Shown piece after piece: positions 3,301-56,584 of a stretch of DNA of 56,722 nucleotides. Each line of letters opens with the position of its first letter. Position 1 is the stretch's first letter. The stretch is from the sequence record SRR31156797_6672; one strand, 5' to 3'. The notes under the pieces are model-generated. The model was not told the origin of the DNA, did not search any database, and saw nothing but the letters and a program-made list of their open reading frames with translations. A program made the translations under genes and the position numbers.

Positions 3301-3421
3301 TGGCAATAAACTCGCTGCAATCCCAAAAACTGGCTGATGGCTCAAGGGTTGAAAGATAAACAACAAATGAGGTTAAAAACGCAAATCCGCCAAAAATTCG
3401 CTTTTGTAATAGGTTGTTCAT
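389..3421 (-). CDS. DUF2723-domain polytopic membrane protein (TMEM260-like / GT117 putative GT-C protein O-mannosyltransferase)
   Basis: 1010-aa ORF with N-terminal motifs SASFWDCSEFIASAYKLVVGHAPGAP, SFWFSAVEAEVYA and GIHLLNLL; later PRERDY, ENWDDHDRS and DNDTYPIWYLQQVE; many TM segments and a TPR-like helical C-terminus. Confidence 0.9.
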   Translation of the reverse strand: MNNLLQKRIFGGFAFLTSFVVYLSTLEPSASFWDCSEFIASAYKLVVGHAPGAPVYMLLGRLFSFMAGGNTQNVAIAINALSAVASALTVMLLFHIIYWFSIKLIKNLHSETTSNRVHFIAVVASLTGSLSYAFTDSFWFSAVEAEVYATSSLFSVLVVWCIIKYEQAPRGWPENRWLVLIFFLLGLSVGIHLLNLLALPAMALVVYHKHHIPTLRKTLLTLSISVLIIVMFIYGIIPGVAKTAAYFDLLAVNNLNLPVYSGVLIFVYLVALALISLYRYFGKTKKHVLRFTVLLISFWLIGYSSFTVLVVRSADDPFVDINNVENVFGLVDYLNREQYPKRPLFYGNGFSSPVIGSEKRFTHKLYNGKYFKDELNPTYEYDPATLSLFPRMASQEPRHVEAYKRWVEIKGRRVSVKEIDGKSKTIVVPTFFDNFRFFMKYQLGHMYLRYFMWNFAGRQNDTQGVGDRFSGNWMSGIPVIDGHRLGSQDQIPNILINVKTRNTYFLIPLLMGILGIFFHMKHDTRNFWVALTLFFFTGPAIVLYLNEVPITPRERDYVHVGSFMVFALWIGLGAGAVFSLWNGRVRSTFGKWALAIALMIGIPGLLLIENWDDHDRSGRFAARDFGKNILSSCDENAILFTTADNDTYPIWYLQQVENFRPDIRQVLTPFLSMDWYGNQMNNSYHGSGLVPVSFKDEELLMKTNQYFPVVPRIDSSIDVKDLIKFIRNSDQRTKVVAGGGEVLNFIPGKNFSLKVDAENLITSAKNLRIAKNEIPDKLNFSIDKKYLTRDEVLILDMIANNKWERPVYTIYPTLFQDIGLMDYLHREGMVFRLLPYKNTNILHDRQTFANHQFELITQKFAWGNVNDPDVFVDHTIKQNVASFRFRQMFAEVADELIEIGEHEKAEQLIDLALQVFPKEKFPFDYYSLDFANCYYKMGEIAKGDTLAVDIYSSTGSKLDYYLQGETINQNQMNDHVQLQAFMMQELIRICSQNNSPLQEKAMARFDKLFQ

Positions 3422-28500: not shown

Positions 28501-31500
28501 TGCATAGTTTGAGGCAACAGTCTCGTTAAATAAATAATTCTCACCCTGGCAAATGGTCTGATCATCGCCAATAGCGATTGCCGGCTCATTCTGGATGGTA
28601 AGCACCATACAATTGTTTCCAACCACAGTTGATGGTGGAACGGGCTGGGCAGTTATGCAAAGTTCAACAGATCCTGCAGACTGGTCGCCGGTTCCGGGAT
28701 AATAGACAGGTTGAGTTGTTGTGACATCGCTGAAAGTACCGTCGCCATTGGTGTTCCAAAGTATAGAAAGATAATTTTCTGCTGTTGCCTGATCCAGAGA
28801 ATATGCTGACCCTTCACATACTGTGGCATCAGGCCCTGCATATACGTTGGGTGCCAATCCGATTACAAGCGTCAGGCAATCCTCATCGGCTAGCTGACAG
28901 GGAGTAATCGGTTCTGCGGTAAGACAAAGCTCAACCGAACCATTCTGCTCGTCTCCAATTCCAGGTGTATAGATAACATTTAATATATTGTTGTCGTTAA
29001 AAGTGCCGTCTCCATTAGATTCCCAGTAGAAATTGCTGAAGTTTTCAACCGATGCGTCCGTGTTGGTGTAAGATTCGCCCTCGGCAATGGTAGCATCATC
29101 TCCGGCATTTGCCTGTGGTTTAGGCTGAATGGTAATGGTCATTTCATCCTGAACTGAGCCCAGACAAGGATCCATGGCTTGCGCAACAATGGTAAGTGTT
29201 ACCGAGCCAATGTTCAAATCATTAGGGCCATGTGTATAGGTTGGGTTTTCAATAGAAGCATTGTCAAATCCACCATCACCACTACTTAACCATTGCAATG
29301 AGGCGTAATTATCTGCACTTGATGAAGCCAACAGGTAGCCTTCATCTTCACATACTGAAGCATCAGGTCCTGCATCCGCCTGAGGAGGTGCCTGGAAACA
29401 CAATTCCATGATATCGCTGGAACTCACCAGGCACGGTGAGTTGGGCAGTGCTTCTATTTGAAGTGAAATGCATCCTTGTTGGATATCAATTAATGAGGGT
29501 ATGTATGTTGGGTTCACTATATTTTCGTTGTCAAAAGTCCCGGATCCATTAAGTGTTGCCCACTGAACCGTTGAATAATTTTCAGCACTTGCTTCTGAAA
29601 GTGTAAATGTTTCCCCTTCGCAAATTGTTGCGTCCGGGCCGGCAGAGGCCAATGGTGACTTTTCAATGGTAATATTCAGGCAGCTAATGGCATCAACTTC
29701 ACAGGGATCACAAGCATAGGCCGTTAAACAAATTTCGAGCCCGCCAGTTTCAATATCATTTGCCCCTGGATAGTAGGTTGTTCCCAGACTGGTATTATCA
29801 TCAAAAGTACCGTCGCCACCGGAGGTCCACAGAAACCCACAATAATTATCTGCGGTTGCATTTAATAGCGCATTTTCACCTTCACAAAGAGAAATATCAT
29901 TTCCGGCATCAGCTGAAACCTGCTTTTGAATAAAAACAGTCATACAATCATCGGCATTGGTATTGCACGGATCACAGGCTGTTGCAAAAATGCATAGCTC
30001 AACCTGTCCGTTTTCAATATCCTGTGCGCCAGGAGTGTATTGAGGAACAATTGCTGTTGCGTCATTAAAAGAGCCATCCCCTGTGGTTGTCCACAATAAA
30101 TCACAATAATGATCAGCGGCAGAAGTTGGCGAAACCTGATCTCCCTCACAAATGGTTACATCCGAACCCGCATCAGCAGTTGGGTTTTTCTGAATAGCAA
30201 GATCAATACAATCAAATGCATCAACAAGACACGGATCGCATGCACTGGCGGTTAAGCATAACTCAACCAAACCGGCATTGATATCAGCAGTACCAGGAAA
30301 GTATTGTGCGCCGGGTGCTGATGCATTATCAAAGGTGCCGTCACCATCTGTCGTCCAGAGTAGTCCGCAATAATTTTCGGCATTTCCATTGAGCAAAATA
30401 TCTTCATCTTCGCAAACCGTTTGATTATTACCTGCATCGGCAAGTGGTTGTTTTCTGATTGTTAATGTCAGGCAATCAGACGGGTTTTGCACACATGGAT
30501 CACATGCTTCCGCCTCAAGACAAAGTTCTACTGTTCCGGTTGTGATGTCATCCTGACCGGGTGTATAAACCGGTACTAAAATTCCAACATTACTAAATGT
30601 TCCATCACCGTTTGTTGTCCACAACAAATTGCAATAATTATCAGCATCTCCCGGTGGTGAAATCGTTTCGCCCTGACAAATCGTAATGTCCTCGCCCACA
30701 GAAACTGATGGCGATTTTTGAATGGTAAGGGTTAAACAATCGAAGGCATCAACGGTGCAGGGGTCGCAAGCATCTGCCTGGATACAAATTTCAACTGTTC
30801 CCAGTAAAATATCATTATCGCCAGGATAATATGTTGTGCTTAATTCTGAAGGGTTTCCAAACGTACCGTCACCATCGCCGGACCAAAGAAGTCCACAATA
30901 ATTGTCAGCAACAGCACTAATGGGAACCGATTCCCCTTCGCAAATCGTGATGTCAGCTCCCACATCCACCGTTGGAGAAACAACAAATGTTGCGGTCAGT
31001 GCATCCTGTGCCGGTGTCTCGCAGGGATCATTCGGCCCCGCAACAAGGGTCAGGTCAACACTTCCATTGTCAACATCGGCCTGCGATGGGTTATAATTTG
31101 TATTTAAACTGCTGTTATCATCAAATGTGCCAGAACCAGATGTTATCCATTCCAAGCTGCTGTAGTTTTCAGCGGTTCCTGCAAGCACAACGACATCGGG
31201 CATGCAAACAGACTGATCTACCCCGGCATCTGCTGTAGGTGCCGGCGATATTGTTACACTAACATCGTCAGAAACAACGCTCAGTCCATCGTCAACCTCA
31301 ACAGTGTATGTGGTGTTTTCAGTTGGGTAAGCTACCGGATTTTGCAGATTTGAAGAAAATCCGGCAGGAACGGATGACCACGAGAATGAGTATGATTCGC
31401 TGCCTCCCGAGGCATCTGCAAATAGTTGAATGCCATCTCCTTCACATCCGGAATCCGGATTGGCTGACGCGGTAACTTCAAGTAGCCCGGTTAAAATTTG

Positions 31501-38760: not shown

Positions 38761-40383
38761 TTAATACGGAAGTACATCCTGGTTTTTATCTTTTTGCCAT
38801 TCAGGGATTTTAAATTTATCCGGATAAAGTCCGTTAATCTGGTCTTTCCATGCGTCGGGATAGCCCACATCATGTATCCGGCCATTTTCATCCTTCACAT
38901 ACCCATCGTTATATTTTGTAAGCAATTGTTCACCAAGCGCAATCCATTCTTCGTGCACTTTTTTGCCCCAAGAATTAGAAAATGCTGTGAGGTCTTCGAT
39001 TTGCTCATCCCTTGAAAGGCCAAGTACAGCTTGTGAAATGCTGTCCACTTCTCGGATCATTTTCGTTTCCAAATGGCTTTGCGCCTTTTGGATATCCTGA
39101 ATCATGTAGGAATACTTCACATTGGCAAAATTGGACACAAAGTTAAAAACCCACCACATGGAATCCCATGAAAATTTATTGATATCACCCATTGTGAAAG
39201 GTTCGGGAACGGAAGTGTTGCCCACAAATATCGGGACATAGCAGGTAAAATAGGTGTCGTCAACACCGAACCAGCAGATTCCTCCCACATTGTCAGGATA
39301 ATCAGCCCTCATCTGGCCGATGTATGAAAAACAGGTGTTGTAGGTTGAAATGGGCCTTTCCCAGGAATATCGTGTGCTGTCCGAATCATCCCAGTAAAGC
39401 GGCCGCCAGCGGTTGGGGGTTCCAAAAGGACCGGCATCCAGGCCTTTGGTCATATCAATTTCAGTGCCTTCATAATGATCTCGTACTAAATCCATCACAT
39501 CCTGAACAGAAAGTTTCTGATCGGGCTTGATCCACAGCGGATATCTTTCCGCCCCCTGCACTCCGCGGTGGTAGTCTGACGAGAATTCCTGCAATGGTGC
39601 TGCCCTTCTAAACAGGCTCCAAACCCGCGATTCGCAGTATTTCAGACGGTCTGGTGAAGCCGGGTTATACACTTCATTAAAACGGAATGGCTCCCCGGAA
39701 TCCGGATCATAATATCCTCTCTCTATCGCAAAACTGATCACATTATCAGAATACAGGCAATTCTCCGGGTCGTCTAGTGGAAACTCACCAATGCGGGCCA
39801 TGTTGGCGTGTGCGGAAATCATCCCATCAGGAATTTTCCGGGCTACCCAAATGGCACCCTCACCCCCATCGCCGGTTCCGATCATTTCGAGAATCCAGGC
39901 TTCGTTGGGGTCGACCAGCGAAAAAGATTCGCCTTCGCTGCCGTAACCATATTGATCAACAATGGAGGTCATCACTTCAACAGCTTCGCGTGCTGTTTTT
40001 GCCCGCTCCAGGGCCAGGCTCATCAGGTGCCAATATTGCAAATATTTGGTGTGATTCCAGAGTTCTTCCCGTCCGGTGAAGGTGGTTTCTCCAACCGCCA
40101 GTTGGTGTTCATTCATCTGGAAACCGACAACTGCATAGGTATGGGGAATCTGGTGAATTTTTCCTTCAACATTATTCCTGCCACTCCTGAAGGTGAGTGA
40201 GTCTCCCGGTTCATGGTCCTCCGCCGGTTTATTCGACAACCGATACAGCCATTCACCATCATTGGTGTAAACCAGATAAGAAGAACCATCCGTAGAGGCT
40301 CCTTTTGTGACGATAAGGTTTGTACAGGGAAAAAGCAGAGCCGGGATTAAAGCGGCAATTACTGCAAAGAAAAATTTATTCAT
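38761..40383 (-). CDS. C69 family dipeptidase (Ntn hydrolase), copy 2
   Basis: Signal peptide then nucleophilic Cys (P|CTNLIVTKGASTDGS), NEHQLAVGETTF, GESFS, AHANMARI, RDHYEGT, ERPIST. Likely start MNKFF (40383). Confidence 0.92.
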   Translation of the reverse strand: MNKFFFAVIAALIPALLFPCTNLIVTKGASTDGSSYLVYTNDGEWLYRLSNKPAEDHEPGDSLTFRSGRNNVEGKIHQIPHTYAVVGFQMNEHQLAVGETTFTGREELWNHTKYLQYWHLMSLALERAKTAREAVEVMTSIVDQYGYGSEGESFSLVDPNEAWILEMIGTGDGGEGAIWVARKIPDGMISAHANMARIGEFPLDDPENCLYSDNVISFAIERGYYDPDSGEPFRFNEVYNPASPDRLKYCESRVWSLFRRAAPLQEFSSDYHRGVQGAERYPLWIKPDQKLSVQDVMDLVRDHYEGTEIDMTKGLDAGPFGTPNRWRPLYWDDSDSTRYSWERPISTYNTCFSYIGQMRADYPDNVGGICWFGVDDTYFTCYVPIFVGNTSVPEPFTMGDINKFSWDSMWWVFNFVSNFANVKYSYMIQDIQKAQSHLETKMIREVDSISQAVLGLSRDEQIEDLTAFSNSWGKKVHEEWIALGEQLLTKYNDGYVKDENGRIHDVGYPDAWKDQINGLYPDKFKIPEWQKDKNQDVLPY

Positions 40384-40398
40384 GATCAAATTGGTGTT

Positions 40399-40427
40399 AA
40401 AAAAGCGCAGCAAACCGGTTGCTGCGC
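40399..40427 (-). terminator. Intrinsic terminator between the two C69 genes
   Basis: GCGCAGCAA-N5-TTGCTGCGC 9-bp stem followed on the minus strand by T6. Confidence 0.75.
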
Positions 40428-40554: not shown

Positions 40555-42300
40555 CTAGTGTCCGTCGCCACCAATCACTTTAAACTGATCGCCGGTTTCC
40601 TTTACAATTCTGCGATACCAGTCTTCACCATATCCGGGTTGTTCAAGATGCGGATTTTGCTGTCCCGGATTTGGGGTTTTAATATTGCCGTCCATGTATT
40701 TCATGAACAGGTACCTGTAAAACTCTTTCCACTGGTAGGTTACTCCGTCTGCAGTGCGTGTAGAATAATCTGTGAGATAGTTTACGGCCAGGTTTGGATT
40801 TTTATCATACAGCTTTTTAGCCTGTTCGTCGATGGTTGGCATAAGCTCAACAAAGCTTTTTTCATAGCTGTCAATCTTGGCTTTTACCTCAGGATAAATA
40901 TTGCTCCAACGGGTGTAGGTAAAGTTGGTAACCTGGTTGAAAACCCAGAAAGCGGCATCGTCAGACCAACGCATCATGGCACCATTTCCGCGTTCAACAG
41001 TATGGGGTGCGCGGGTAATGCTACAATACATGGGCATATAAACAGAACATGAAGCATCGTCAAGCCCAAACCAGATAATACCTCCAATTGGATCGGGCAA
41101 CCAGCTACGCATTTGTGACACAAACGAAAATCCGGTTTGTTGTGTGGCGGTAGCGCGTTCGTTGCAATAGGTTTCGCCATCAACCTCCCATGTGAGTGGA
41201 CGCCAGCGGTATGGTTTACCAAACGGACCGGCTCCCATGTCTTTACTCATGTCAAGTTCGGTGCCTTCGAGGTGGTCGCGCATAAATTCAAACATATCAA
41301 GCACATCTACTTTTTTGTTGGGTTTTACCCAGAGAGGCATACGATTGGTTGCATACTTGTCGATGTTTTCTTCGCCATTGGCCAGCTTTTTTCCGTGTTC
41401 AATGTTTCCTTTCACATACTCCCAGTATTGATCCATACCATCGGTAACATCGTTGAACATACTCCAAACCCGTATCTCACAAAAACGTGCTCCACCAAAA
41501 CCCACCGGGGCATATGTGTCGGAGAAACTAAAGTTTTCATCTTTCCCTACAAAATAACCGTTCTCCCGGGCAAATGAAATTACATCTTCAGCATAGATTG
41601 TGGTGATGTTATCGTCTTCCAAAAACTGGTCGAAATCATTTGAGCTAACTGATGTCTTACCGTCGGCCAAAGGGAAAGTGGTAATCCTGGCCTGGTTGGC
41701 ATGACCACAAACATATCCGTCAGGAACCTGGCGCGCTACCCAAACAGCCCCTTTGTGTCCGTTGCCTTTACCGATGAGTTCCAAAATCCAAACCTCGTTG
41801 GGATCAGCAATCGAGAATGATTCGCCTGAGCTATAGTAACCATAGGTTGAGGTCAGGTAATGAAACAGGTGTATGGCTTCACGCGCATTTTTTGCGCGTT
41901 GAAGCGTAATATAAATCAGGCTGCCATAATCAATAATGGCCCCTTCCTGACTTCCAAGTTCATTCAGACCGCCGTAGGTTGTTTCACCAATGGAAACCTG
42001 AAATTCATTGATGTTTCCTACCACATTGTAGGTTCTGGGAGCCTGTTCGATTTTACCCAGAAATTTGCCGGTGTCCCATTCATATACATCCATCAGGGTT
42101 CCTTCGGGCCAGGTAGCAGCCTGCCAGTGATAAAGCTCACCATAGAGCACATGCGAATCTGCAGCATATGAAATCATGGTTGAACCATCGGTTGAGGCCC
42201 CTTTTGTAATCAGATAATTGGTGCAGGCCTGGGCATGTTCACCGAATCCTGCAATAAACAGAGTAATCACTAAAAAAAGTAATAAACGTTGTTTCTTCAT
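40555..42300 (-). CDS. C69 family dipeptidase (Ntn hydrolase), copy 1
   Basis: Signal peptide then A|CTNYLITKGASTDGS, NEFQVSIGETTYGG, GESFS, GHANQARI, RDHLEGT, NERATATQQT. Confidence 0.93.
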   Translation of the reverse strand: MKKQRLLLFLVITLFIAGFGEHAQACTNYLITKGASTDGSTMISYAADSHVLYGELYHWQAATWPEGTLMDVYEWDTGKFLGKIEQAPRTYNVVGNINEFQVSIGETTYGGLNELGSQEGAIIDYGSLIYITLQRAKNAREAIHLFHYLTSTYGYYSSGESFSIADPNEVWILELIGKGNGHKGAVWVARQVPDGYVCGHANQARITTFPLADGKTSVSSNDFDQFLEDDNITTIYAEDVISFARENGYFVGKDENFSFSDTYAPVGFGGARFCEIRVWSMFNDVTDGMDQYWEYVKGNIEHGKKLANGEENIDKYATNRMPLWVKPNKKVDVLDMFEFMRDHLEGTELDMSKDMGAGPFGKPYRWRPLTWEVDGETYCNERATATQQTGFSFVSQMRSWLPDPIGGIIWFGLDDASCSVYMPMYCSITRAPHTVERGNGAMMRWSDDAAFWVFNQVTNFTYTRWSNIYPEVKAKIDSYEKSFVELMPTIDEQAKKLYDKNPNLAVNYLTDYSTRTADGVTYQWKEFYRYLFMKYMDGNIKTPNPGQQNPHLEQPGYGEDWYRRIVKETGDQFKVIGGDGH

Positions 42301-44572: not shown

Positions 44573-45262
44573 TTACCCGATGAAAAAAATACCGCCACCA
44601 TCAATAAGGGCTGTGTCACAAAGTTCAATCAATTCAATTTGGTGAAGATCAAGAAATGATTGCAGCTTTGGTCCATCCGGATATTTGCTGAGATTTCCGA
44701 GAATAAATAGTTGTGTTTTTTGCCTACCACAGCAACCACCAATAAAACCATGGTTGAACCCGGAGAGGGCTATTCCTTTTGGGTCTAAAAATAGCGCAGT
44801 AACGCCGGCGATTTGCAATTGGTTTTTTATCCCATGGTCAGATGTTATGGCAAGATCATTATTCAAAAACAAAAGGTTACACCTGGTATAACCCTGGTTA
44901 ACATGGATCATCGTTTTTTGTCCGGCAGTTTCAAGAATTGACGGATCTGTTATTTTTGTGTTGTGCACCAGGTATTTGTGGGTTGCCACAGCATTGTATC
45001 TGGCCGATTCAGGATATTGCTGCCCGACAGGATTTATACCAACCTTAAAATTGATGTTATGATTTTGAAGTTCAAGAAAATATTTTGGGGGGAGGTTTGG
45101 TGCAACAATCAGTTGACCATCGACCTGCGCGAAAAAAATATCCGGATGGCCGGAGATAGCCGGGTAGGTAATTCCCGATGTTTCTAATTCCATCAACTCA
45201 CCATAATTGGAAAGCGTTTTTTTGGCTTCCACAGGCACCTTCGCATCAATGATAATCAACAT
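44573..45262 (-). CDS. DUF6873-like protein (putative GME/pentein, amidinotransferase-like fold)
   Basis: Likely start MLIIIDAK (45262), overlapping the upstream stop; motifs ISGHPDIFF, YPESARYN, VNQGYTRC, ITSDHGI, HGFIGGCCG, LIDGGG. Confidence 0.75.
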   Translation of the reverse strand: MLIIIDAKVPVEAKKTLSNYGELMELETSGITYPAISGHPDIFFAQVDGQLIVAPNLPPKYFLELQNHNINFKVGINPVGQQYPESARYNAVATHKYLVHNTKITDPSILETAGQKTMIHVNQGYTRCNLLFLNNDLAITSDHGIKNQLQIAGVTALFLDPKGIALSGFNHGFIGGCCGRQKTQLFILGNLSKYPDGPKLQSFLDLHQIELIELCDTALIDGGGIFFIG

Positions 45263-46250
45263 AAAAATCGCGATTTGTGAGTTTAGGGTCGGTTTTAAAA
45301 CGTACTCGTCTGAACTTTTGTAGCAACATTTTTTTGTTGGCGGCTTCGTATCCAACAGCATAATTCAATTCACCCGGTGGGATAAAAATGGTCAGGTCTT
45401 CCGGATAATTTTGGTGGATTTCAATTAGTCTATCCCGCCATAATTTTGTTAGCACCAGCTCTTTAAACGAAATATGGAAAGGCCCGGCAACCAAATCAGA
45501 ATGATCCATCAAGCCTTCCGAAGGATGCAACCCAACACGGATGATATTCACACCGGCATTTTCAAATACAGGAATAACCTTTGCTGTTTGGTCAACGGCA
45601 TCGGATAGAGACAACGGCGCAAATTTTCTTGACCGGCAAAGCTTTTCAAGGGGTGTGCCTTTAATCACCAGTGTGGGATAAATCCTTACATCCTGAGCTC
45701 CCAATTTCACAAACTCTTTTGCTGTGAACATTGTTTTTTCAGGTGTGTCTCCGGGAAGGCCAATCATCATTTGTAAACCCAGCCTGAACCCTTTTGCTGA
45801 AATTTTCTTCGCGGCTTCAACAATTTTTTCAGCCTTATGTCCCCTGCCCGACTTTTGAAGCACTTCATCGTCCATGGATTGTGCGCCCAGTTCAATGGTT
45901 TCAACATGGAGCCTTTTCAACAGATTCAGAACATCATCTGTAATAAAATCGGGACGTGTTGACAATCGGATAAATTTAATGGTTCCCTGATTGATGAACG
46001 GCTGAACAGCATCAAGATACATGGCCTGGGTTTCCAATTTCAATCCCGTAAATGTTCCACCAAAAAAACCAACCTGCACTTCAGAATCTTTGGGAATGGT
46101 TTTAAGATGGGCTTCGATGATTTTAGTCACCTCATCTATCGTTGGTGTTTCCAGATGCCCTGAAATTTTTTCCTGGTCGCAATAAATGCACTGAAAAGGA
46201 CAGGCTTTCATGGGTATAAAAACCGGTATAGTGAAGTGTTTTCCAGGCAT
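45246..46250 (-). CDS. Elp3-like radical SAM protein lacking the KAT domain
   Basis: IPVFIP..ACPFQCIYC (CxxxCxxC), FFGGTFT, RLSTRPD, IELGAQS, QMMIGLPGD, RIYPTLV..T, IIRVGL, AGPFH. Confidence 0.9.
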   Translation of the reverse strand: MPGKHFTIPVFIPMKACPFQCIYCDQEKISGHLETPTIDEVTKIIEAHLKTIPKDSEVQVGFFGGTFTGLKLETQAMYLDAVQPFINQGTIKFIRLSTRPDFITDDVLNLLKRLHVETIELGAQSMDDEVLQKSGRGHKAEKIVEAAKKISAKGFRLGLQMMIGLPGDTPEKTMFTAKEFVKLGAQDVRIYPTLVIKGTPLEKLCRSRKFAPLSLSDAVDQTAKVIPVFENAGVNIIRVGLHPSEGLMDHSDLVAGPFHISFKELVLTKLWRDRLIEIHQNYPEDLTIFIPPGELNYAVGYEAANKKMLLQKFRRVRFKTDPKLTNRDFYVDYH

Positions 46251-48616: not shown

Positions 48617-48669
48617 ATGTTTAAGGCAAACTTTATTCATGACTTCGCTGTTGCCAAAAAGAAAAAATC

Positions 48670-49043
48670 ATTCAAAAAAAGAGGATCACCGTGCCCGGTT
48701 ATGAAGGGATGTTGGTATCTGTAGTCCAAGTGGGTTTTTAACCAGACTAAGAATTATCTGTCAAAGTATATATCCTACCTTAATTAAAGGCTATCTGTTT
48801 AAGAATTGTTTTTCACAATCCTTGCGTCAAGGTGAAAAGAATTCAAACCAAAATCATCCATCACAACTGGATCAGCCCGAAAGACCTGATGCAGCTTTTC
48901 AGAAAAGCGCTGAACTCAAATATTAATTTCGGAATTTATTGGGGGGGTCAAACAAAACAATATCCGGCTTAAGCATTGCTAATGCTAAAAAGGATTTAGG
49001 GTACAAGTCTGTTGATGATTTTGAAAAAACTAAAGACATTTGA
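48670..49043 (+). pseudogene. Decayed NAD-dependent epimerase/dehydratase (uronate dehydrogenase-like) pseudogene
   Basis: Fragments KKRITVPGYEGMLVSVVQVGF* (degenerate Rossmann start); NWISPKDLMQLFRKALNSNINFGIYWG; frameshift in a G7 run; then SNKTISGLSIANAKKDLGYKSVDDFEKTKDI*. Confidence 0.55.
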
Positions 49044-49144
49044 TAAATTGCCAATTTTGTGAAATAAGAGATCAGTCAACATGTGGAAAGCCCCTACCAG
49101 AAATGATTTGTCAAAACATAAATGCAAATAAATACATTAATTGC

Positions 49145-49152
49145 TATTTTTG
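49145..49152 (+). promoter_or_regulatory. Bacteroidota -7 promoter element (TATTTTTG) at the head of the RRE/kinase/GT cluster
   Basis: Exact TAnnTTTG match 36 nt before ATG 49189, which supports that start over the TTG at 49141. Confidence 0.6.
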
Positions 49153-49188
49153 ATCCCGAAAAGAGATTGCAACCAAAATCAAAAAAAT

Positions 49189-49647
49189 ATGGGATTAGCA
49201 AATATACTTACGGTGAATGAGCCCAATGTAGTGCACGAAACCATTGATGGTGAAACCATCCTGCTTGATTTAAATACGGGGAATTATTTCAGCCTTGCAG
49301 GGCCCGGTGCAATTGTATGGGAGGCCATTGTTGAAACCGGTAGTTGGAAAATGGTTATAGAGGAGTTTCAAAAAAATAACGGGGAATCAAAGGATACAAT
49401 CCGGAAATCCATTACTGGTTTTTTGGGGGATTTGATGCAGGAAAACCTGCTGGTTGAAACAACCGATGCAAAAGCAGATCATTTTTCTGATGAAATAGCT
49501 AACCAGATCAAAGAAGCCGCAAAGAACTTTACAGCCCCTGCTATCAATAAATATTCTGACATGCAGGACTTGTTACTGCTTGACCCGATTCATGAAGTGG
49601 ACGAAAAAGGCTGGCCCGAAAGCAAAGATGCTCCAGAAAATGAGTAG
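49189..49647 (+). CDS. PqqD-family RiPP recognition element (RRE) with a fused C-terminal leader/precursor-like peptide
   Basis: VVHETIDGETILLDLNTGNYFSLAGPGAIVWE...FLGDLMQENLL is a PqqD/RRE signature; tail FTAPAINKYSDMQDLLLLDPIHEVDEKGWP. Confidence 0.88.
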   Translation: MGLANILTVNEPNVVHETIDGETILLDLNTGNYFSLAGPGAIVWEAIVETGSWKMVIEEFQKNNGESKDTIRKSITGFLGDLMQENLLVETTDAKADHFSDEIANQIKEAAKNFTAPAINKYSDMQDLLLLDPIHEVDEKGWPESKDAPENE

Positions 49648-49676: not shown

Positions 49677-50810
49677 ATGAAACCTAAATATGGAAGTCCA
49701 TTCACCAATCCATCACAGGAATTACTGATCAAATCTTGTTTTGCATCCCCCGGGGATTTTGGAACCTTTTATTCAAAATGGAAAAAACAAATTGATTTTG
49801 AGGAAGACATCGAGTATGGATCATTCAGGCTTTTGCCCCTGCTATATTTAAAATTGCTCGATCATAAAATTGAAGATGAACTCACGCCAAGGCTAAAGGG
49901 TATCTACCGGAAATCGTGGTCCCAAAACCACTTTCTTTTCAGGGAAACGGGTAAGGTAGTAAATTTCATGCATCAACATGGCATTCCAACGCTTTTGATC
50001 AAAGGCATTCCGTTGTCCATTTTGTCCTATCGTAATTATGCAGCGAGGCCGATGGTAGATATGGACATTCTGGTTCATCCTGAGGATGCAAAGACAACTT
50101 TCAGGCTTTTGCTCGATAACGGCTGGAAGTCGGCAGACGAAGTTCATGATCACTACAACCTGAATCATCAGAAAAGCATTACGGCAATTGATAAGAAAAA
50201 TACAGAATTCGACCTGCACTGGTATCCTTTTGATGAGTGTTATGGACTTGCGAACAAGGATGATTTTTGGGACCGGGCTGAAGAAATTGTTGTTTCCGGA
50301 GCAAAAACACTTGCACAGTGCGCTGCTGATGAATTGTTGCTTTCTTTTGTTCACGGGCTTATGCCAAATCCAGTTCCGCCTATCCGTTGGATTGCCGACG
50401 CTATGACGTTGATCAGCGACAAGAAACGACCGGTTGACTGGGACAGGGTTATTGAATATGCAGGAAAATTCAGTGTGCAGGTTCAACTCCAAATTGCTAC
50501 AAAATACCTGAACGAAACTTTTGATGCTCCCATTCCAGAGGAGGTGTACAACAGAATTTTAAAAATAAAGCCCACGCTTGCCGACAAGCTGGTTTATAAA
50601 AGGAAAGGGGTTTTCGTTTACCATCCCTCACTTAAAAAACTTTTCATCGCCTACATCTCTTTTCTCAAAAACCCGGCATACAAAAGTTTGCTCACCAGGC
50701 ATTTTGCATTTTTCAGGTACCTTCGTGAAAGGTCGAAAGGAAAACCTGCTTTTAAAATTTTGATCTACTATATTTCCGTAATTTTAAAGCGAAGAAAATC
50801 AAACAGATAA
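49677..50810 (+). CDS. Nucleotidyltransferase family protein (NTP_transf_5 type, as found in lasso/RiPP clusters)
   Basis: LLIKGIPL...Y..YAARPMVDMDILV (RxxxDxD), EFDLHW, IRWIAD, VDWDRV. Confidence 0.88.
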   Translation: MKPKYGSPFTNPSQELLIKSCFASPGDFGTFYSKWKKQIDFEEDIEYGSFRLLPLLYLKLLDHKIEDELTPRLKGIYRKSWSQNHFLFRETGKVVNFMHQHGIPTLLIKGIPLSILSYRNYAARPMVDMDILVHPEDAKTTFRLLLDNGWKSADEVHDHYNLNHQKSITAIDKKNTEFDLHWYPFDECYGLANKDDFWDRAEEIVVSGAKTLAQCAADELLLSFVHGLMPNPVPPIRWIADAMTLISDKKRPVDWDRVIEYAGKFSVQVQLQIATKYLNETFDAPIPEEVYNRILKIKPTLADKLVYKRKGVFVYHPSLKKLFIAYISFLKNPAYKSLLTRHFAFFRYLRERSKGKPAFKILIYYISVILKRRKSNR

Positions 50811-50824
50811 TACCAAAACAATAA

Positions 50825-52528
50825 TTGGCTGCTTTACGAAAGAATAAACCAGGTAAGCGCACAGCGCTCTTTTCAAGACCGGCATGGCGATACTTCTATG
50901 GTTTTTTTAAACAAGACCGGAATAAACTTGTGTTCACGTCTCTGGGTTTTGTTGCGGCCAGTTACCTGATACTGCCCACACTTTGGCTTGTAAAACATGT
51001 GTTTGACGTTGCCATTCCACAGAAGCAGGTTACAACATTTTTCCTGGCCGGAGGTGCCATTTTTTTAATCCGGGTTGTGAATAGTTCCATCACCCTCTAT
51101 CTCCGTAAATACAATATCAACACGATATCAAATGCCATTTTTGAACTGCGTAAACACCTGACCCATAAAATTTTTACCCTATCCCGCTCCTACCTCGACA
51201 GGGAGGACCTTTCCATATTGCACACACGCATCGTACAGGATACAGAACGTGTTTCAAGGATGGGGACATCAATCATTGGCGGACTATTTCCCGCAATCCT
51301 GGTAAGCATCGGCCTGATTGGTGTGTTGCTGTATTTAAACTGGTATCTGTTCCTGATAATTCTCCTTTTTTTTCCTGTCTTGTATTTTTCAAACAATTAC
51401 ATGGGCCGGATTGCAAAAAAAAAGGTTTACAGCTACCAGCGCGCATTTGAAGGGTTTAGCCGGGGAACCATGTTCCTGATCAAATTTATGGATTTGATAA
51501 AACTGCAGTCGGTTGAAAATGAAGAAAGCGAAAAGCAAAACACCATTCTGGATGATCTGAAAAACAAAACCACGGACAGAACTTTTTTTAATACCCTCAA
51601 CAACCAGACCCAAAGTCTGGTGCTGAGCCTAATTGGGCTTACAGTGCTTATTGTGGGTGGTATTGCTGTGGTTAAGGATGTGATGACCCTGGGCGATCTG
51701 ATGGCATTTTACCTGGCGGCGATGCAATTACAATCCAGGCTGGGAAATATCAGCGGGTCTTTTTCGAATTTGCTTACCGGAAATGAATCGCTGATTACAC
51801 TTTATCATATCGCTGAGAAGCGCGAAACAGAACCTTACTCCGGAAAGCAAAAAATCCAGTTGCAAAATAAAATCCAATTTAAATCGGTTGCTTTTCAATA
51901 CACAGATAACCCGGTTCTTCACAACATAAACCTTACCATTTCGAAAGGTAAAAGTTATGCCATCATTGGCCCGAACGGATCTGGGAAATCCACCATCATT
52001 CACCTGTTACTGGGATTTTATAAACCGATGGATGGCAATATTTTTGCAGATGAAACTCCCTACGATGAGATTGATTTTAGCTGGTTCAGAAAATCATTTG
52101 GTGTTGTATCCCAGCACCCGCCACTCATTCAGGGTACTATTTCCAATAATATTTCATTCGGAAATAATGCTTCCACAGATAATGACATCCTTGAATCAGC
52201 AAGACTATCAACTGCAAACGACTTCATTCAAAAGCTACCCAATGGATTCCAAACAGAAATCGGTGATAGCGGTGTGTTGCTTTCCGGTGGTGAAAGGCAG
52301 AAAATAGCCATTGCCCGGGCACTATTGCGAAAACCGAAATTGCTCATTCTGGATGAGCCTACTAACCATCTTGATGAATCGGCTGTGGAAGAAATTATGC
52401 AAAATATTAAATCGCTTCACTTCAATCCTTCAATATTAATTATCAGTCACGACATGTCGGTAATCCGGCACGCATCCGAAATTTACATGTTGGATAAAGG
52501 CATTTTAAACGTATACAATCAGGCATAA
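50825..52528 (+). CDS. ABC exporter, fused permease plus ATP-binding domain (no C39 peptidase domain)
   Basis: Six TM segments; Walker A GPNGSGKST, signature LSGGERQK, Walker B LILDEPT, H-loop ISHD. Confidence 0.95.
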   Translation: MAALRKNKPGKRTALFSRPAWRYFYGFFKQDRNKLVFTSLGFVAASYLILPTLWLVKHVFDVAIPQKQVTTFFLAGGAIFLIRVVNSSITLYLRKYNINTISNAIFELRKHLTHKIFTLSRSYLDREDLSILHTRIVQDTERVSRMGTSIIGGLFPAILVSIGLIGVLLYLNWYLFLIILLFFPVLYFSNNYMGRIAKKKVYSYQRAFEGFSRGTMFLIKFMDLIKLQSVENEESEKQNTILDDLKNKTTDRTFFNTLNNQTQSLVLSLIGLTVLIVGGIAVVKDVMTLGDLMAFYLAAMQLQSRLGNISGSFSNLLTGNESLITLYHIAEKRETEPYSGKQKIQLQNKIQFKSVAFQYTDNPVLHNINLTISKGKSYAIIGPNGSGKSTIIHLLLGFYKPMDGNIFADETPYDEIDFSWFRKSFGVVSQHPPLIQGTISNNISFGNNASTDNDILESARLSTANDFIQKLPNGFQTEIGDSGVLLSGGERQKIAIARALLRKPKLLILDEPTNHLDESAVEEIMQNIKSLHFNPSILIISHDMSVIRHASEIYMLDKGILNVYNQA

Positions 52529-52529
52529 A

Positions 52530-55070
52530 ATGGACAAACCTGAAAAATCGGAACAGGAACAAATTCATTTTTTTGAGCAATGTAAACTAAAGTTTAACCA
52601 GGCTGCAATAAAAACAGGAGCAATTAAGCTTTTTTACCGGATTGCCGAAACAACAGTTTGTTTGAATTTCGCCGGAAAGGCATTACTTCCCTGGTTAACT
52701 CCCGCGCTGGAACACCTCAAAATAAACGCTGCAAGCGCAGATTTAACAATTCATGTTTTTGATACCATTTCCACCGGGGTGAATGCCCCTCCCCCGCCAT
52801 GCGAATGGGCGGATTTTACAGATCGTGGAGATATCTGGGGATTCAACAGCAAGCGCATCAAAACTGCCTTTCACTGGAGTGAATATTCAGTGAATGTACT
52901 CGACCTGGATACCAATACCGGTGTTTACTGGGTGAAAAACCCAAATGCTTTTCCGTACTGGGTTTATTCCTCTCCTTTCCGCTCAATGATACAGTGGTGG
53001 ATGGAAAAAAATGGAGGCCAGCTTTTGCATGCTGCCGCTGTAGGCAATGAAGACGGTGCTGTGTTGATTACCGGCAAAGGCGGAACCGGAAAATCAACCT
53101 CTGCTATCGTTAGCCTTGACCAGGGTATGAAATACCTGGGCGACGACTATGTGATCGTGAAAAAAGATCCGGAACCAACTGTCTACAGTCTTTATAGCAC
53201 AGCCAAACTCAACATTGAGGACATGAGTAAGTTCCCTGCTCTTGCACCAATGGCAGTTAATAAAACTAAGGAAGACCAGGAAAAAGATGTGCTGTTTCTG
53301 TATCCAAAACGCAGGCATCAGATCGTTGACAAACTTCCGATTAAGGCCATCCTTACACCAAAAATTCAAAAGAGCAGAAATACCGATATTGTTCCGGCGT
53401 CATTCTGGCCCATTCAAAAAGCCATGTCATTTACAACCATGTCGCAACTTCCTGGCGTGGGATCGCACACACAACAATACATCAGGGAATTCATTTCAAA
53501 ACTTCCCTGTTATCTGTTAAAACCGGGAAATTATTACCCGGGAGTTTCCGATACAATTACGGATTTTCTTGATCATCCTGAAAAGTACCAGGTTGATGAA
53601 ACTGCAAAAGAAAACAAGGAAAAACCGCTGATAAGCATTGTGATACCGGTCCATAACGGCGCCCGATTTATTCATGCTGCCATCGAAAATATCCGGCAAC
53701 AAAAATATCCGGCAACCGAGATTTTTATTGTGGATGATGGTTCGACCGACGATACCCGTGAAGTGGTTGAAAACCTGGATGAGGATGTGCGCTATTTTCA
53801 CCAGCCCAATTCAGGCCCGGCAGCGGCAAGAAATAGAGCAATCAGGGATGTATCAGGAGAATTCATCGCCTTCCTGGATGTGGATGACCTGTGGCCGGAT
53901 AAAAACCTTGAGATGCTGATGCAGGAATTACAGCAAAACCCTGAGCTGGATTTGGTAAGGGGGTATGCCCAGCTTTTCAGAATAAATGAAAATGATGAAA
54001 TGGAGTATATCGGGAATCCAAAAGAATCCTATCCAAACTATATCGGTGCGGCGCTTTACCGCAAATCGGCCTTCGAAAAAGTAGGGTTATATGATCCTGA
54101 ATTACGTTTTGGTGAGGATGGTGACTGGTTTAACCGCGCCAAAGAAAAGCAGATTAATATGAACCGCCTGGATGATGTCACGCTTTTTGTGCAACGCCAC
54201 GAAAATAACATGACCAAAGGCAAAAGCCTGGTGGAACTCAACACACTGAAGGTTTTTAAAAAGAAACTTGAAAGAAAGCGCTCGGGTATAGTTGAAGACA
54301 AAGTAAAACCTGATGCAAACCATAAAACTAACCTACCACTGATCAGTGTGATTATTCCGGTGTACAATGGCGGTGCATTTATTGCAGATGCCATCGAGAG
54401 CGTAAAATCGCAAAACTACCAGCCTATCGAGATCATCGTTGTTGACGATGGGTCAACGGACAATACGGCGGACATGGTGAAAATGACTGGTGAAGGCCAG
54501 GCCTATTCCAGGCAGGAAAACAATGGCCCTGCAGCAGCCAGAAATGCAGGATTACGCCAAGCAAAAGGAAAGTATATCGCTTTCCTTGATGCTGACGATG
54601 TTTGGCTTCATGATAAACTAATCCGCCAGGAAGCCTTAATGCGCAACCAGTCGAAATCAGGTGCCGTGATTGGCTATACCCATAAAATGCCCATGTCACA
54701 AAAACCCGGCAACAATAAGAAAAACCAGGGTGATTTCCTGCTCAGCCTTGGAGCATCACTGTTCAGAAAAAGTGTTTTCGACAAAGTCGGTTTTTTTGAC
54801 GAGAATCTTAAATCCGGTGAAGACATCGACTGGTTTTTAAGGGCAAGAGAAGCCGGAGTTCACATTATGATTCATAAACAGCTTGTGCAATATTACCGAA
54901 CTCATGGCCGCAATATTTCCAACAATCAAAATCTGGTTAATCTGTTCTTACTTAAAGTGCACAAAAAATCTCTGGATCGCAGGCGTAAGGCCGGGAAGGG
55001 TACTGCATTTAAACTGCCAAAACTCAATGATGTGGATGAAATAATGAAATTCTGGCAGAATCGGGATTAA
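52530..55070 (+). CDS. Fusion protein: HprK-related P-loop kinase plus two GT2 glycosyltransferase domains
   Basis: aa 1-350: LLHAAAV...GKGGTGKST...YLGDDYV. GT2 domain a from aa 366 (PLISIVIPVHN, VDDGSTD, FLDVDD, GED.DW). GT2 domain b from aa 603 (PLISVIIPVYN, VDDGSTD, FLDADD, GEDIDW). Confidence 0.9.
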   Translation: MDKPEKSEQEQIHFFEQCKLKFNQAAIKTGAIKLFYRIAETTVCLNFAGKALLPWLTPALEHLKINAASADLTIHVFDTISTGVNAPPPPCEWADFTDRGDIWGFNSKRIKTAFHWSEYSVNVLDLDTNTGVYWVKNPNAFPYWVYSSPFRSMIQWWMEKNGGQLLHAAAVGNEDGAVLITGKGGTGKSTSAIVSLDQGMKYLGDDYVIVKKDPEPTVYSLYSTAKLNIEDMSKFPALAPMAVNKTKEDQEKDVLFLYPKRRHQIVDKLPIKAILTPKIQKSRNTDIVPASFWPIQKAMSFTTMSQLPGVGSHTQQYIREFISKLPCYLLKPGNYYPGVSDTITDFLDHPEKYQVDETAKENKEKPLISIVIPVHNGARFIHAAIENIRQQKYPATEIFIVDDGSTDDTREVVENLDEDVRYFHQPNSGPAAARNRAIRDVSGEFIAFLDVDDLWPDKNLEMLMQELQQNPELDLVRGYAQLFRINENDEMEYIGNPKESYPNYIGAALYRKSAFEKVGLYDPELRFGEDGDWFNRAKEKQINMNRLDDVTLFVQRHENNMTKGKSLVELNTLKVFKKKLERKRSGIVEDKVKPDANHKTNLPLISVIIPVYNGGAFIADAIESVKSQNYQPIEIIVVDDGSTDNTADMVKMTGEGQAYSRQENNGPAAARNAGLRQAKGKYIAFLDADDVWLHDKLIRQEALMRNQSKSGAVIGYTHKMPMSQKPGNNKKNQGDFLLSLGASLFRKSVFDKVGFFDENLKSGEDIDWFLRAREAGVHIMIHKQLVQYYRTHGRNISNNQNLVNLFLLKVHKKSLDRRRKAGKGTAFKLPKLNDVDEIMKFWQNRD

Positions 55071-55080
55071 CAGCATTTTC

Positions 55081-55767
55081 ATGATGAAACCAAAAGTAAG
55101 CGTAATCATACCGGTATACAACCGCGAGCAATACATTGCTGAGGCTATTCAAAGCGCCATAAATCAAGCCTGTTCCTCCATCGAAATTATTGTTGTTGAT
55201 GACGGGTCTACGGATGGTACGCCTGAGGTTGTTTCGCAATTCAAGACCATTAAAATTATAACACAATCCAACCAGGGTGTTGCTGCCGCACGAAATACCG
55301 GCCTTGCCCATGCATCAGGTGAACACATCGCTTTTGTTGATAGTGATGATATTTGTATGCCGAAGAGATTCCGGATTTGTTTGGATCATTTTGCAAAAAA
55401 TCCTGAAACAGATTTTATAGTTGGAAAAGAACAAATGTTTCTCGAAAAGAACACCCCCCAACCGGATTCAATAAATCCCGAATGGCTTGCGGGGCCAAGG
55501 GATGCCTGGAATACAGCTGTTTTATTTGCGAGAAAATCCTGTTTTGAAACCGCAGGAATGTTCAACACAAACTATATTTCAGGTGAGGACACAGAGTGGT
55601 TTTTTCGGGCTATAGGAGTGGGGCTAAAATATGTCCAGCTTCCCGATGTACTCATCAAACGCAGGATCCACTCCACCAATCTATCAATCGAGCGTAAGAA
55701 ATTTGAGAATAAAATGTTGTTTCAGGTACTCAGGGAATCGGTTCAACGAAAACTTCATAACAAATAA
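55081..55767 (+). CDS. Glycosyltransferase family 2
   Basis: KVSVIIPVYN, VDDGSTD, AAARNTG, FVDSDD, GEDTEW, RRIHSTN. Confidence 0.93.
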   Translation: MMKPKVSVIIPVYNREQYIAEAIQSAINQACSSIEIIVVDDGSTDGTPEVVSQFKTIKIITQSNQGVAAARNTGLAHASGEHIAFVDSDDICMPKRFRICLDHFAKNPETDFIVGKEQMFLEKNTPQPDSINPEWLAGPRDAWNTAVLFARKSCFETAGMFNTNYISGEDTEWFFRAIGVGLKYVQLPDVLIKRRIHSTNLSIERKKFENKMLFQVLRESVQRKLHNK

Positions 55768-55825: not shown

Positions 55826-56584
55826 ATGAACAAACCAAAAATCAGTGTTATACTTCCCGTTTTTAACGGTGAGAAAAATGTAAGCCAGGCCATCAACAGT
55901 GTTTTAAATCAAACACTTAAGCCTTATGAAATCATTGTTGTAAATGATGGTTCAGTTGATGGAACTTCGCAAATATTAAAACAATTTGGCGATAAAATTA
56001 CTGGTATAGATCAAGATAATATGGGCCCGAACCGTGCCCGGAATACCGGGATTAAAGCCTCAACCGGAGATTTTATTGCATTTATGGATGATGATGACGA
56101 GATGATGCCAAAGGCTTTGGAACACCATGTTGCCTGCTTTTCAAAATACCAAAATCTTGGTGTTTCACATGGTTACGCCGAAATGAGGCAGTACCAGGCT
56201 TTGCCACCAGATAATGAGGAAATATTTGAATCGAAAACTGTACCCATGTTATTGTTACAGTGTGCATTGTTTAAAAAATCGGTGTTTGATAAGGTAGGTT
56301 TGTTTGATAAGGACTTGTTTTTGGCCAGCGATCTGGATATGTTTTTGCGGGTAAAAGAAGCTGAAATTCCTTTTGCTTTTCACGAGGAAGTGGTGGCAAT
56401 CCACAACAGACATCAGACAAACTCAACCGGAAATAAGGTTAAAGCCCAACTATACCTTTTAAAGGCAATTAAAAAAGCAAAAGAAAGGCGTAAAAATACT
56501 GGTGAAGGTCATAACATCGAAAAAATAACATTGAAAAATGCTGAAGATGCCCGCAATTTTTGGCACACAGCGAAAACAAATTAG
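55826..56584 (+). CDS. Glycosyltransferase family 2
   Basis: KISVILPVFN, VNDGSVD, ARNTG, FMDDDD, VGLFD, ASDLDM, RHQTN. Confidence 0.92.
   Translation: MNKPKISVILPVFNGEKNVSQAINSVLNQTLKPYEIIVVNDGSVDGTSQILKQFGDKITGIDQDNMGPNRARNTGIKASTGDFIAFMDDDDEMMPKALEHHVACFSKYQNLGVSHGYAEMRQYQALPPDNEEIFESKTVPMLLLQCALFKKSVFDKVGLFDKDLFLASDLDMFLRVKEAEIPFAFHEEVVAIHNRHQTNSTGNKVKAQLYLLKAIKKAKERRKNTGEGHNIEKITLKNAEDARNFWHTAKTN

Follow-up and report, generated by a model that had tools for sequence, protein, structure and literature searches.

A RiPP recognition element that may carry its own ligand, in a cross-phylum cassette of kinase-like, nucleotidyltransferase and glycosyltransferase genes

Searches for ribosomal-peptide pathways use RiPP recognition elements (RREs) as signposts, presuming that a separate precursor is encoded close by. 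The locus described here encodes an RRE that is followed, in the same polypeptide, by a segment resembling the leader motif to which RREs bind, and it thereby raises two questions: does this RRE hold its own tail as a ligand, and, if so, what is the tail presented for? The locus lies in a stretch of DNA of 56,722 nucleotides from sequence record SRR31156797_6672 (hereafter the window; one strand, 5' to 3'). A sequence-only reading of the window had proposed a self-liganded RRE that permanently offers an uncleaved tail to a kinase, a nucleotidyltransferase and glycosyltransferases.

Results

Layout of the gene and fold of the encoded protein

The gene and the segments of its product are as follows.

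49189..49647, + strand: RRE-tail gene, encoding a 152-aa protein (ATG at 49189; the stop codon ends at 49647)
49204..49458, + strand: PqqD-type RiPP recognition element, residues 6-90 (Pfam PF05402, AF2, Foldseek, profile against the PDB)
49459..49527, + strand: variable acidic/Ala linker, residues 91-113 (0.75 bits per column; AF2 helix 101-112)
49528..49548, + strand: leader-like recognition motif F114-T-A-P117-A-I119-N120, family consensus FxxPxL (alignment counts)
49549..49617, + strand: near-invariant motif, K121 to P143 (3.47 bits per column)
49618..49647, + strand: short, variable, E/K/P-rich end, residues 144-152, plus the stop codon (not conserved)

The open reading frame on the + strand ends at 49647 and could begin at 49141 or 49189; the upstream TTG at 49141 is an unlikely start, and homologues begin at the position of ATG 49189. 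With this start, F114 is encoded from base 49528, and the last base of the stop codon is 49647; the coordinates previously given for the tail (49528..49647) are thus exact, as is the translation quoted for it. The earlier description of an RRE of about 90 residues followed by an acidic/Ala linker was likewise borne out.

The RRE matches PF05402 (PqqD) over residues 22-88, covering the whole model, with an E-value of 4.7e-8 and 33.7 bits against a gathering cut-off of 23.4. The AF2 model has strands at residues 6-9, 14-19, 22-27, 33-37 and 88-90 and helices at 39-50, 53-63 and 65-84; this secondary structure, predicted at pLDDT >90, matches the winged helix-turn-helix fold of RREs (a three-stranded sheet plus three helices). 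Foldseek matched the domain to the lasso protein TbiB1 (5v1v_A, E 1.3e-4, TM 0.86 on the target), and a profile of the family searched against the PDB found TbiB1 (8e-18), PbaB1 (9x90, 3e-14), TfuB1 (4.9e-7) and LppB (9x8z, 2e-6). Against the NCBIfam lasso B1 models NF033536 and NF033530, the protein scored well below the curated cut-offs (39.6 against 80 and 28.5 against 70, respectively).

Conservation in a large family peaks in the tail

A word-based search returned 1128 relatives of similar length, the 120 of them listed spanning at least 89% of the query, and an exhaustive search of 50% representatives returned 3727 relatives at E ≤0.001 and 2003 at E ≤1e-10. At least 520 species-representative genomes from more than 10 phyla (among at least 600 candidate stretches) encode an RRE-tail relative. 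The titles of 80 related loci name Bacteroidota, Balneolales, Ignavibacteriaceae, Nitrospirota, Acidobacteriota, Chloroflexota, Cyanobacteria, Actinomycetota, Syntrophales and other deltaproteobacteria, as well as Clostridia, Spirochaetia, Lentisphaerae, Gemmatimonadaceae, Dadabacteria, Rokubacteria, Binatia and Gammaproteobacteria.

Lack of conservation among homologues had been named beforehand as one of the findings that would refute the self-liganded reading. The tail is instead strongly conserved across phyla and is the best conserved region of the family: in a 146-sequence alignment (A2), residues 121-144 average 3.47 bits of information per column, the RRE 2.08 and the linker 0.75. The tail consensus reads FxxPxLxKY(T/S)DMQDLLLLDPIH(E/D)VDExGWP. 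In the recognition motif, position 114 is Phe in 118 and Tyr in 16 of the 146 sequences, P117 is Pro in 136, and position 119 is Leu, Ile or Val in 138. Further along, K121 (122 sequences), Y122 (121), D124 (143), M125 (140), H135 (145) and P143 (145) are all well kept, and D132, P133, G141 and W142 are identical in 146/146 each. Position 123 is more permissive (Thr in 80, Ser in 44, Asp or Glu in 13), with Ser or Thr in 124 of the 146, and the alignment contains no invariant Ser, Thr or Tyr in the tail. Position 123, the Ser in the position-by-position match to a lasso leader that had been drawn for this single protein (FxxPxI-xx-Y-S-D-M), is therefore not fixed, and the near-absolute positions in the alignment include no hydroxyl residue.

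The sequence-only reading had divided the tail into a leader and an acidic core. In 211 of 259 proteins, only 5-14 residues of variable sequence separate GWP from the end of the protein. A variable core peptide behind the motif was rejected on these grounds, and this part of the earlier interpretation was not upheld.

A phmmer search of the tail against PDB chains gave 0 matches at E up to 10, a search of the ESM Atlas with the tail alone gave no usable match, and the motif strings were not found in the literature searched. A match of the family profile to Tektin-3 (0.0038) was taken as chance. Stand-alone tails are very rare, with two proteins of 46 and 51 aa in a collection of 5.8 billion proteins, and these may be miscalled or cut.

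These data bear on the evolutionary proposal that came with the original reading, namely that the tail descends from a lasso leader and that the Thr(-2) cleavage signal and the B2 protease disappeared together. The RRE is indeed closest to lasso B1 proteins, B2 and cyclase are absent from the cassette (see below), and residue 129, 15 residues past F114, is Leu in 136 of the 146 sequences, as the proposed replacement of Thr by Leu would have it. That correspondence comes from counting 15 residues from F114, however, and carries no sign of descent from a cleavable leader: past FxxPxL, the tail has no detectable similarity to any solved chain, leaders of at least 20 residues included. Moreover, purifying selection on this large and uniform family is strong, a picture unlike decay, and the score against the NCBIfam lasso B1 model stays at 39.6 where 80 is required. 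We therefore regard a degenerate lasso system as highly improbable.

A conserved enzyme cassette downstream of the RRE-tail gene

In the window, the RRE-tail gene is followed on the same strand by genes and domains for a nucleotidyltransferase, an exporter, a kinase-like protein and several glycosyltransferases.

49677..50810, + strand: PF14907 (NTP_transf_5) nucleotidyltransferase of the PsmN/LppN family (Pfam E 5.6e-39, 134.6 bits against 31.2)
50825..52528, + strand: MsbA-like ABC exporter, fused permease and ATPase, without a peptidase domain (Pfam ABC_membrane, ABC_tran)
52530..53579, + strand: HprK/PEPCK-fold P-loop kinase-like domain, residues 1-350 of an 846-aa protein (invariant residues, AF2 fold)
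53580..55070, + strand: two GT2 domains fused to the kinase-like domain (Pfam Glycos_transf_2, two stretches, E 5.1e-69)
55081..55767, + strand: GT2 glycosyltransferase (Pfam E 3.3e-37)
55826..56584, + strand: GT2 glycosyltransferase (Pfam E 9.4e-34; the window ends 138 bases later)

The partners foreseen from the sequence, a kinase-glycosyltransferase fusion, a nucleotidyltransferase and glycosyltransferases, are therefore all present, as a kinase-like/GT2 fusion, a PF14907 protein and further GT2s. Matches of the exporter to NCBIfam models (MsbA, HepA and PglK-like) were all below cut-off. Upstream of the RRE-tail gene lie housekeeping genes, gltX and folB, on the opposite strand, and then a gap of 500 bases. 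No precursor-like ORF stands out in the gap at 48640-49189, and no lasso cyclase, B2 protease or signal-peptidase-type enzyme was found among the 35 ORFs scanned in the window.

The cassette recurs in the family, a cultured carrier being Rhodohalobacter sulfatireducens (L010). Across the window and 80 related loci (81 in total), conserved neighbours were found as follows.

HprK-like kinase domain: 70/81 loci
PF14907 nucleotidyltransferase: 69/81 loci
GT2: 69/81 loci
MsbA-like ABC pump: 41/81 loci

In all 11 loci where a kinase-like gene is missing, the DNA that follows the RRE-tail gene downstream is shorter than 2.9 kb; two loci (L065 and L067) have full 10-kb flanks yet no nucleotidyltransferase match. 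The next gene downstream encodes the nucleotidyltransferase in 41 and the kinase-like protein in 25 of the 81 loci, hence one or the other in 66, and its ORF often overlaps that of the RRE-tail gene. Among 62 clustered homologues, 34 carry the kinase-like domain in fusion with GT2. No family beyond the five (RRE-tail, kinase-like, nucleotidyltransferase, GT2 and pump) occurs in more than 12 loci; the remainder includes epimerase, sulfotransferase, GT4 and radical SAM enzyme genes.

Neither a peptidase nor a lasso cyclase was found among the conserved neighbours in the 81 loci (Pfam-named clusters 5-17; families in more than 4 loci), and a BLAST comparison within 10 kb found no conserved small ORF that might encode a precursor, the largest family being confined to 4 closely related loci. 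The absence of a B2 peptidase, which had been read as fitting the loss of the cleavage signal, is thus true of the cassette and its conserved neighbours. A gene of the B2-type family PF13471 is, however, encoded elsewhere in 4 of 5 cassette-bearing genomes, so that the statement holds for the cassette and not for the genome.

Docking of the tail motif on its own RRE

Lasso and LPP (linear polyphosphorylated peptide) RREs bind the motif [Y/W]xxPx[L/V/I/F/A] (PMC13381572), and the conserved [F/Y]xxPx[L/I/V] of the tail has the same form, as had been noticed in the original reading. Given this resemblance, three lines of evidence bear on whether the tail lies in the groove of the RRE that carries it: a structure model, equivalence to known binding residues, and covariation.

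The AF2 model, built from the 146-sequence alignment, has a mean pLDDT of 86.1. Residues 1-122 are placed at >90, among them helix 101-112 (pLDDT about 96) and the strand 119-122; from 123 to 152 the values drop to 48-68, secondary structure is absent, and the chain appears floppy. Structure prediction had been put forward as the way to see whether the FTAPAI strand inserts in the cleft; it does place this segment confidently, with the strand beginning at I119, but occupancy of the groove is still something that we infer.

The family profile aligns without gaps to LppB (9X8Z), PbaB1 (9X90), TbiB1 and TfuB1, with LppB residue n corresponding to residue n+4 here. The leader-binding pocket of LppB includes F74, M78 and L83, and its D70 hydrogen-bonds the hydroxyl of the leader Tyr (PMC13381572). 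The equivalents of the three pocket residues, F78, L82 and L87, are invariant in alignment A1. At position 74, which corresponds to LppB D70, Asp or Glu occurs in 6 of 16 sequences with Y114 compared with 6 of 118 with F114 (Fisher p 7e-4, uncorrected for kinship).

Covariation was measured as corrected mutual information. The strongest RRE-tail pairs involve positions 32 and 37, on the strand that binds leaders, and the residues in covarying pairs are chemically complementary. With 307 sequences (effective number 243), 32-126 ranks second among all pairs separated by more than 4 residues (z 6.1), with Asn or Ser at 32 accompanying Gln at 126, and His, Arg or Tyr accompanying Glu; in the pair 37-120, Asp or Glu goes with Asn, and Arg with Glu. 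A salt-bridge-like pair, E85-K121, is kept, with one K-E swap. For the pairs that involve residues 32 and 37, the two residue numbers add up to 155-158, which is compatible with an antiparallel strand along 33-37, the mode of binding already published. In a global test, covariation of tail residues 114-126 with the 18 LppB-contact positions over other RRE positions gave p 0.035, the same p as the linker control, and the top 20 covarying pairs showed no significant enrichment, 6 falling at the 18 contact positions where 4.1 were expected (p 0.22). Since AF2 draws on the same alignment signal, model and covariation are not independent. For the self-liganded RRE as originally proposed, the motif, the AF2 confidence and the single covarying pairs all fit, but the global test does not reach significance, and it is for this reason that we treat groove occupancy as inferred.

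An ordinary C-terminal extension would explain the same non-significant enrichment: segment 101-122 would pack on another face of the RRE, and the resemblance to a leader motif would be coincidental. Yet the motif, which is kept across phyla, is spaced exactly like the known recognition sequence, conservation extends to the residues of the groove, and the strongest RRE-tail pairs fall on the leader-binding strand. Such a coincidence seems to us quite unlikely, and the model and alignment together make docking of FxxPxL in cis on the leader-binding edge likely.

Independent support for cis liganding comes from five tandem multi-RRE proteins: P0122 and P0210 contain two RREs, P0124 and P0245 three, and P0218 three RREs fused to the kinase-like domain. 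Ten of their 13 RRE units, read by eye, are followed by their own [F/Y/W]xxPx[L/I/V/F], and the full invariant motif is present on only one unit per protein. These tandem and fused forms came from an all-against-all search; a word search for longer fused forms found none.

A docked tail might also serve as a plug. RREs normally bind peptides in trans, and the cis FxxPxL could close the groove until a separate precursor, encoded elsewhere and too variable to detect, displaces the tail. The small-ORF search leaves room for such a peptide, being a BLAST comparison of short, possibly hypervariable sequences within 10 kb only, as do the B2-type PF13471 genes found elsewhere in 4 of 5 cassette genomes. 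On the other hand, no small ORF was conserved in the 81 loci, it is the tail and not the RRE that is most conserved, and the provision of each RRE of the tandem proteins with a motif of its own fits permanent occupancy. Autoinhibition is accordingly an improbable account.

Comparison with known systems

The closest published system is that of the LPP clusters, LppA/K/B/S/D/N (Popov et al., Nat Commun 2026, PMC13381572). Like the cassette described here, LPP clusters lack a lasso cyclase, are set among glycosyltransferase genes, use a recognition motif (YxxPx(V/L)), and place an HprK-like kinase, an NTP transferase as well as an MsbA-like pump beside the RRE, although the pump is found here in only 41/81 loci. 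LPP clusters, which the authors call restricted to Bacillota, have a separate precursor (35-200 aa, variable at its C-terminus) and LppS, a leader peptidase of the SpI type. Here, in contrast, the recognition motif is fused to the RRE, no peptidase is conserved among the named neighbour families, more than 10 phyla are represented, and the kinase-like domain is often fused to GT2. The two sequences also diverge beyond the motif: the LppA consensus after YxxPxV is LxHQxIxFETxxS (PMC13381572), to which the tail is unlike, only xxPx(L/V) being common to both. No conserved small ORF in the 81 loci could represent a separate LppA-type precursor with a YxxPxVLxHQxIxFETxxS leader.

Pseudomycoidin/paeninodin-type lasso clusters (PsmB1, PsmK and PsmN; PMC6993621) similarly combine an RRE, an HprK-like kinase and a PF14907-type transferase, and the chemistry proposed for them, phosphate on Ser and then hexose on the phosphate, may offer an analogy. 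They differ in having their own precursor, cyclase, B2 protease and C-terminal Ser acceptor, none of which is conserved here. PsmN itself is assigned to PF14907 only through the description 'uncharacterized NTP transferase' in the papers. The lasso B1 proteins TbiB1 (5V1V/5V1U) and TfuB1 (6JX3) share the fold (Foldseek TM 0.86 and 0.75 on the target) and bind a leader motif of the same form, but in those systems the leader is a separate chain that is cut by B2, whereas here it belongs to the same chain and the cassette has no protease.

Pairs of PqqD-like and HprK-like proteins (HprK_rel_A/B; SynChlorMet ScmC/ScmD), which to our knowledge are uncharacterised, weakly match both the kinase-like domain and the RRE-tail protein (0.0021 for the latter against ScmD). 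These matches lie far below cut-off, so the cassette is not a member of either system. RREs fused to GT2 are mentioned in PMC12710340, whose passages on the terms searched do not include the RRE-tail family. The open-access main texts searched contained no description of the tail motif, or of any RRE joined in one chain to the sequence that it recognises.

The partner enzymes and the substrate question

HPr kinase/phosphorylase is characterised by a P-loop, an Asp-Asp metal site and a catalytic His. All three are kept in the kinase-like domain, whose invariant residues across 61 sequences are H167, G185, G187, K188, S189, D205, D206 and K252. Its NCBIfam matches were to TIGR04355 HprK_rel_B (1.3e-7), TIGR04352 (HprK_rel_A; 2e-5) and ScmC (2.4e-4), all below cut-off, and it also missed the curated cut-offs for HPr kinase/phosphorylase (PF07475, 21.3 against 33.3; TIGR00679, 17.1 against 240). 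The AF2 model (pLDDT 95.2) is closest in fold to ATP-dependent PEP carboxykinases (E 6e-12), and all 50 matches listed are PEP carboxykinases. Scores below every curated cut-off, together with a PEP carboxykinase-like fold, mean that a non-protein substrate is possible. In the nucleotidyltransferase, D128 and D130 are at least 90% conserved among 55 sequences; the acidic pair of PsmN is D134/D136, and PsmK has a DD site (PMC6993621). A complex prediction for the kinase-like domain with the whole RRE-tail protein, made without alignments or controls, gave ipSAE values of 0.03 and 0.04 against a mark of 0.34 and counts as evidence neither way.

In the characterised relatives, a Ser receives one to three phosphates from PsmK, and hexoses on the phosphate require PsmN (PMC6993621); LppK adds polyphosphate to Ser3 of LppA but did not act when that site held Thr, and the RRE LppB presents the peptide to the peptidase and is insoluble without its peptide (PMC13381572). 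When LppN was deleted in a heterologous host, no change in what the LPP cluster produced could be detected (PMC13381572). By analogy with LppK and PsmK, the simplest acceptor in the tail would be Ser/Thr123. This residue is replaced by Ile, Glu, His, Asn or Gln in 5 of 69 loci that keep the kinase-like gene, and the simplest model, with 123 as obligatory phospho-acceptor, is weakened accordingly. As for the truly invariant residues (Asp, Pro, His, Gly and Trp), we know of no HprK-type kinase that uses them as acceptors.

Discussion

Given the gene, fold, conservation and neighbourhood described above, the best reading, and on balance a probable one, is of a self-liganded RRE: the RRE-tail protein would offer its invariant tail, as a built-in precursor, to the enzymes of the cassette. 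FxxPxL (residues 114-120) and the strand 119-122 would lie in cis on the leader-binding edge and groove of the RRE, with contacts perhaps reaching Q126, much as a separate leader lies there in lasso and LPP systems, and this docking would anchor the tail and probably stabilise the domain. The near-invariant 20-residue end, from D124 to GWP, would thereby be held out as a flexible element and offered to the two universal partners, the HprK/PEPCK-fold kinase-like domain (here fused to two GT2s) and the PsmN-like PF14907 nucleotidyltransferase. The tail would then be phosphorylated, a sugar would be put on the phosphate, the GT2s would extend it, and the MsbA-like pump, where present, would export the product. 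The role of built-in precursor is the most likely one for the tail; the chemistry and the acceptor residue are proposed by analogy with PsmK/PsmN and LppK.

Instead of serving as an acceptor, the end of the tail might be a docking handle. As a handle only, the protein would be a non-catalytic adaptor whose invariant end plugs into the kinase-like subunit, the nucleotidyltransferase subunit or both to assemble or activate a glycan-building complex, and the acceptor would be a lipid-linked or soluble sugar, or a protein encoded elsewhere. This would account for a conserved set of Asp, Pro, His, Gly and Trp in place of hydroxyl residues and for the dispensability of position 123, and it sits well with a kinase-like domain closest in fold to PEP carboxykinase, a small-molecule enzyme. 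It would also suit a pump that is no less similar to the lipid/glycan flippases MsbA, PglK and HepA than to peptide pumps (every match being below cut-off), and the changing sets of GT2, GT4, epimerase and sulfotransferase genes that always accompany the cassette, as in polysaccharide loci. It is harder to reconcile with an RRE that is filled by its own tail and has no obvious adaptor cargo, with the peptide substrates of the nearest characterised kinase and nucleotidyltransferase relatives, and with conservation so extreme over 20 residues, which is unusual for a simple tether. We consider a pure docking role possible, though rather unlikely.

If the built-in precursor is itself modified, the protein may be a self-priming acceptor with its own chaperone, in which the tail is phosphorylated, receives a sugar from the PsmN-like enzyme and is extended by GT2s to yield an exported phosphodiester-linked glycan on a protein or peptide. 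Being drawn by analogy, this version is put forward only tentatively. As the tail is invariant, the product in this case would be one conserved molecule and not a variable antibiotic. If true, ribosomal peptide modification would have a branch that spans phyla and works without a leader peptidase, or else a surface glycan would be made by a protein-primed route.

Overall, the sequence-only interpretation is partly supported: the cassette appears to be a new variant of RRE-guided phospho/glyco-peptide tailoring with a near-invariant tail. Thousands of 'orphan' PqqD/HprK-like/nucleotidyltransferase cassettes in more than 10 phyla defeat the precursor logic by which RREs are used to find pathways, and an RRE that carries its own ligand would, if true, explain the missing precursor. 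One small soluble protein would then also give a direct mass spectrometry handle on the real action of PsmN/LppN-type enzymes. From Bacteroidota to Cyanobacteria and Actinomycetota the 20-residue motif barely changes, which suggests a conserved product or interaction that may be linked to surface glycans.

Architecture of the RRE-tail proteins and the kinase-like domain

Among the homologues of the RRE-tail protein, five (P0122, P0124, P0210, P0245 and P0218) carry two or three RRE units in tandem. Most of these units are followed by their own FxxPxL-type motif, and in each protein a single unit retains the full invariant motif, which corresponds to residues 121–143 of the RRE-tail protein. 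One of the five, the 849-aa P0218, combines three RREs with the kinase-like domain in a single fusion. Only two short proteins were found that have the tail motif but lack an RRE, P0270 (46 aa) and P0271 (51 aa), and these may reflect split genes, frameshifts or cut contigs.

We also considered the fold of the domain labelled 'HprK-like' in the window:

52530–53579 (+), kinase-like domain, 350 aa

Judging from its predicted structure (pLDDT 95.2), a Foldseek search placed ATP-dependent PEP carboxykinases as the nearest folds to the whole domain (E 6e-12), and HPr kinase was absent among the 50 matches listed.

Genomic setting of the cassette

In 12 of the cassette loci, the RRE-tail and kinase-like genes are separated by a gene for an NAD-dependent epimerase/dehydratase (for example, L057:10457–11248). 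Among the genomes carrying the cassette, a PF13471 gene (lasso B2-type transglutaminase-core) scored above the cut-off in four of five, namely G001, G002, G003 and G005, which are the genomes of loci L010, L020, L063 and L067.

The window itself encodes several further proteins:

389–3421 (-), protein of 1009 aa containing a protein O-mannosyltransferase domain of the TMEM260-like kind (E 1.3e-57)
19504–32217 (-), 4236-aa protein
38761–40413 and 40555–42300 (-), adjoining pair of Peptidase_C69 paralogues
44573–45361 and 45246–46250 (-), radical SAM gene (Radical_SAM and Radical_SAM_C), then DUF6873 gene

As called, the radical SAM and DUF6873 reading frames overlap by 116 bases. The 4236-aa protein has PKD domains at its N-terminus together with a C-terminal sorting domain of the type IX secretion system, a combination that is consistent with a Bacteroidota origin of the window.
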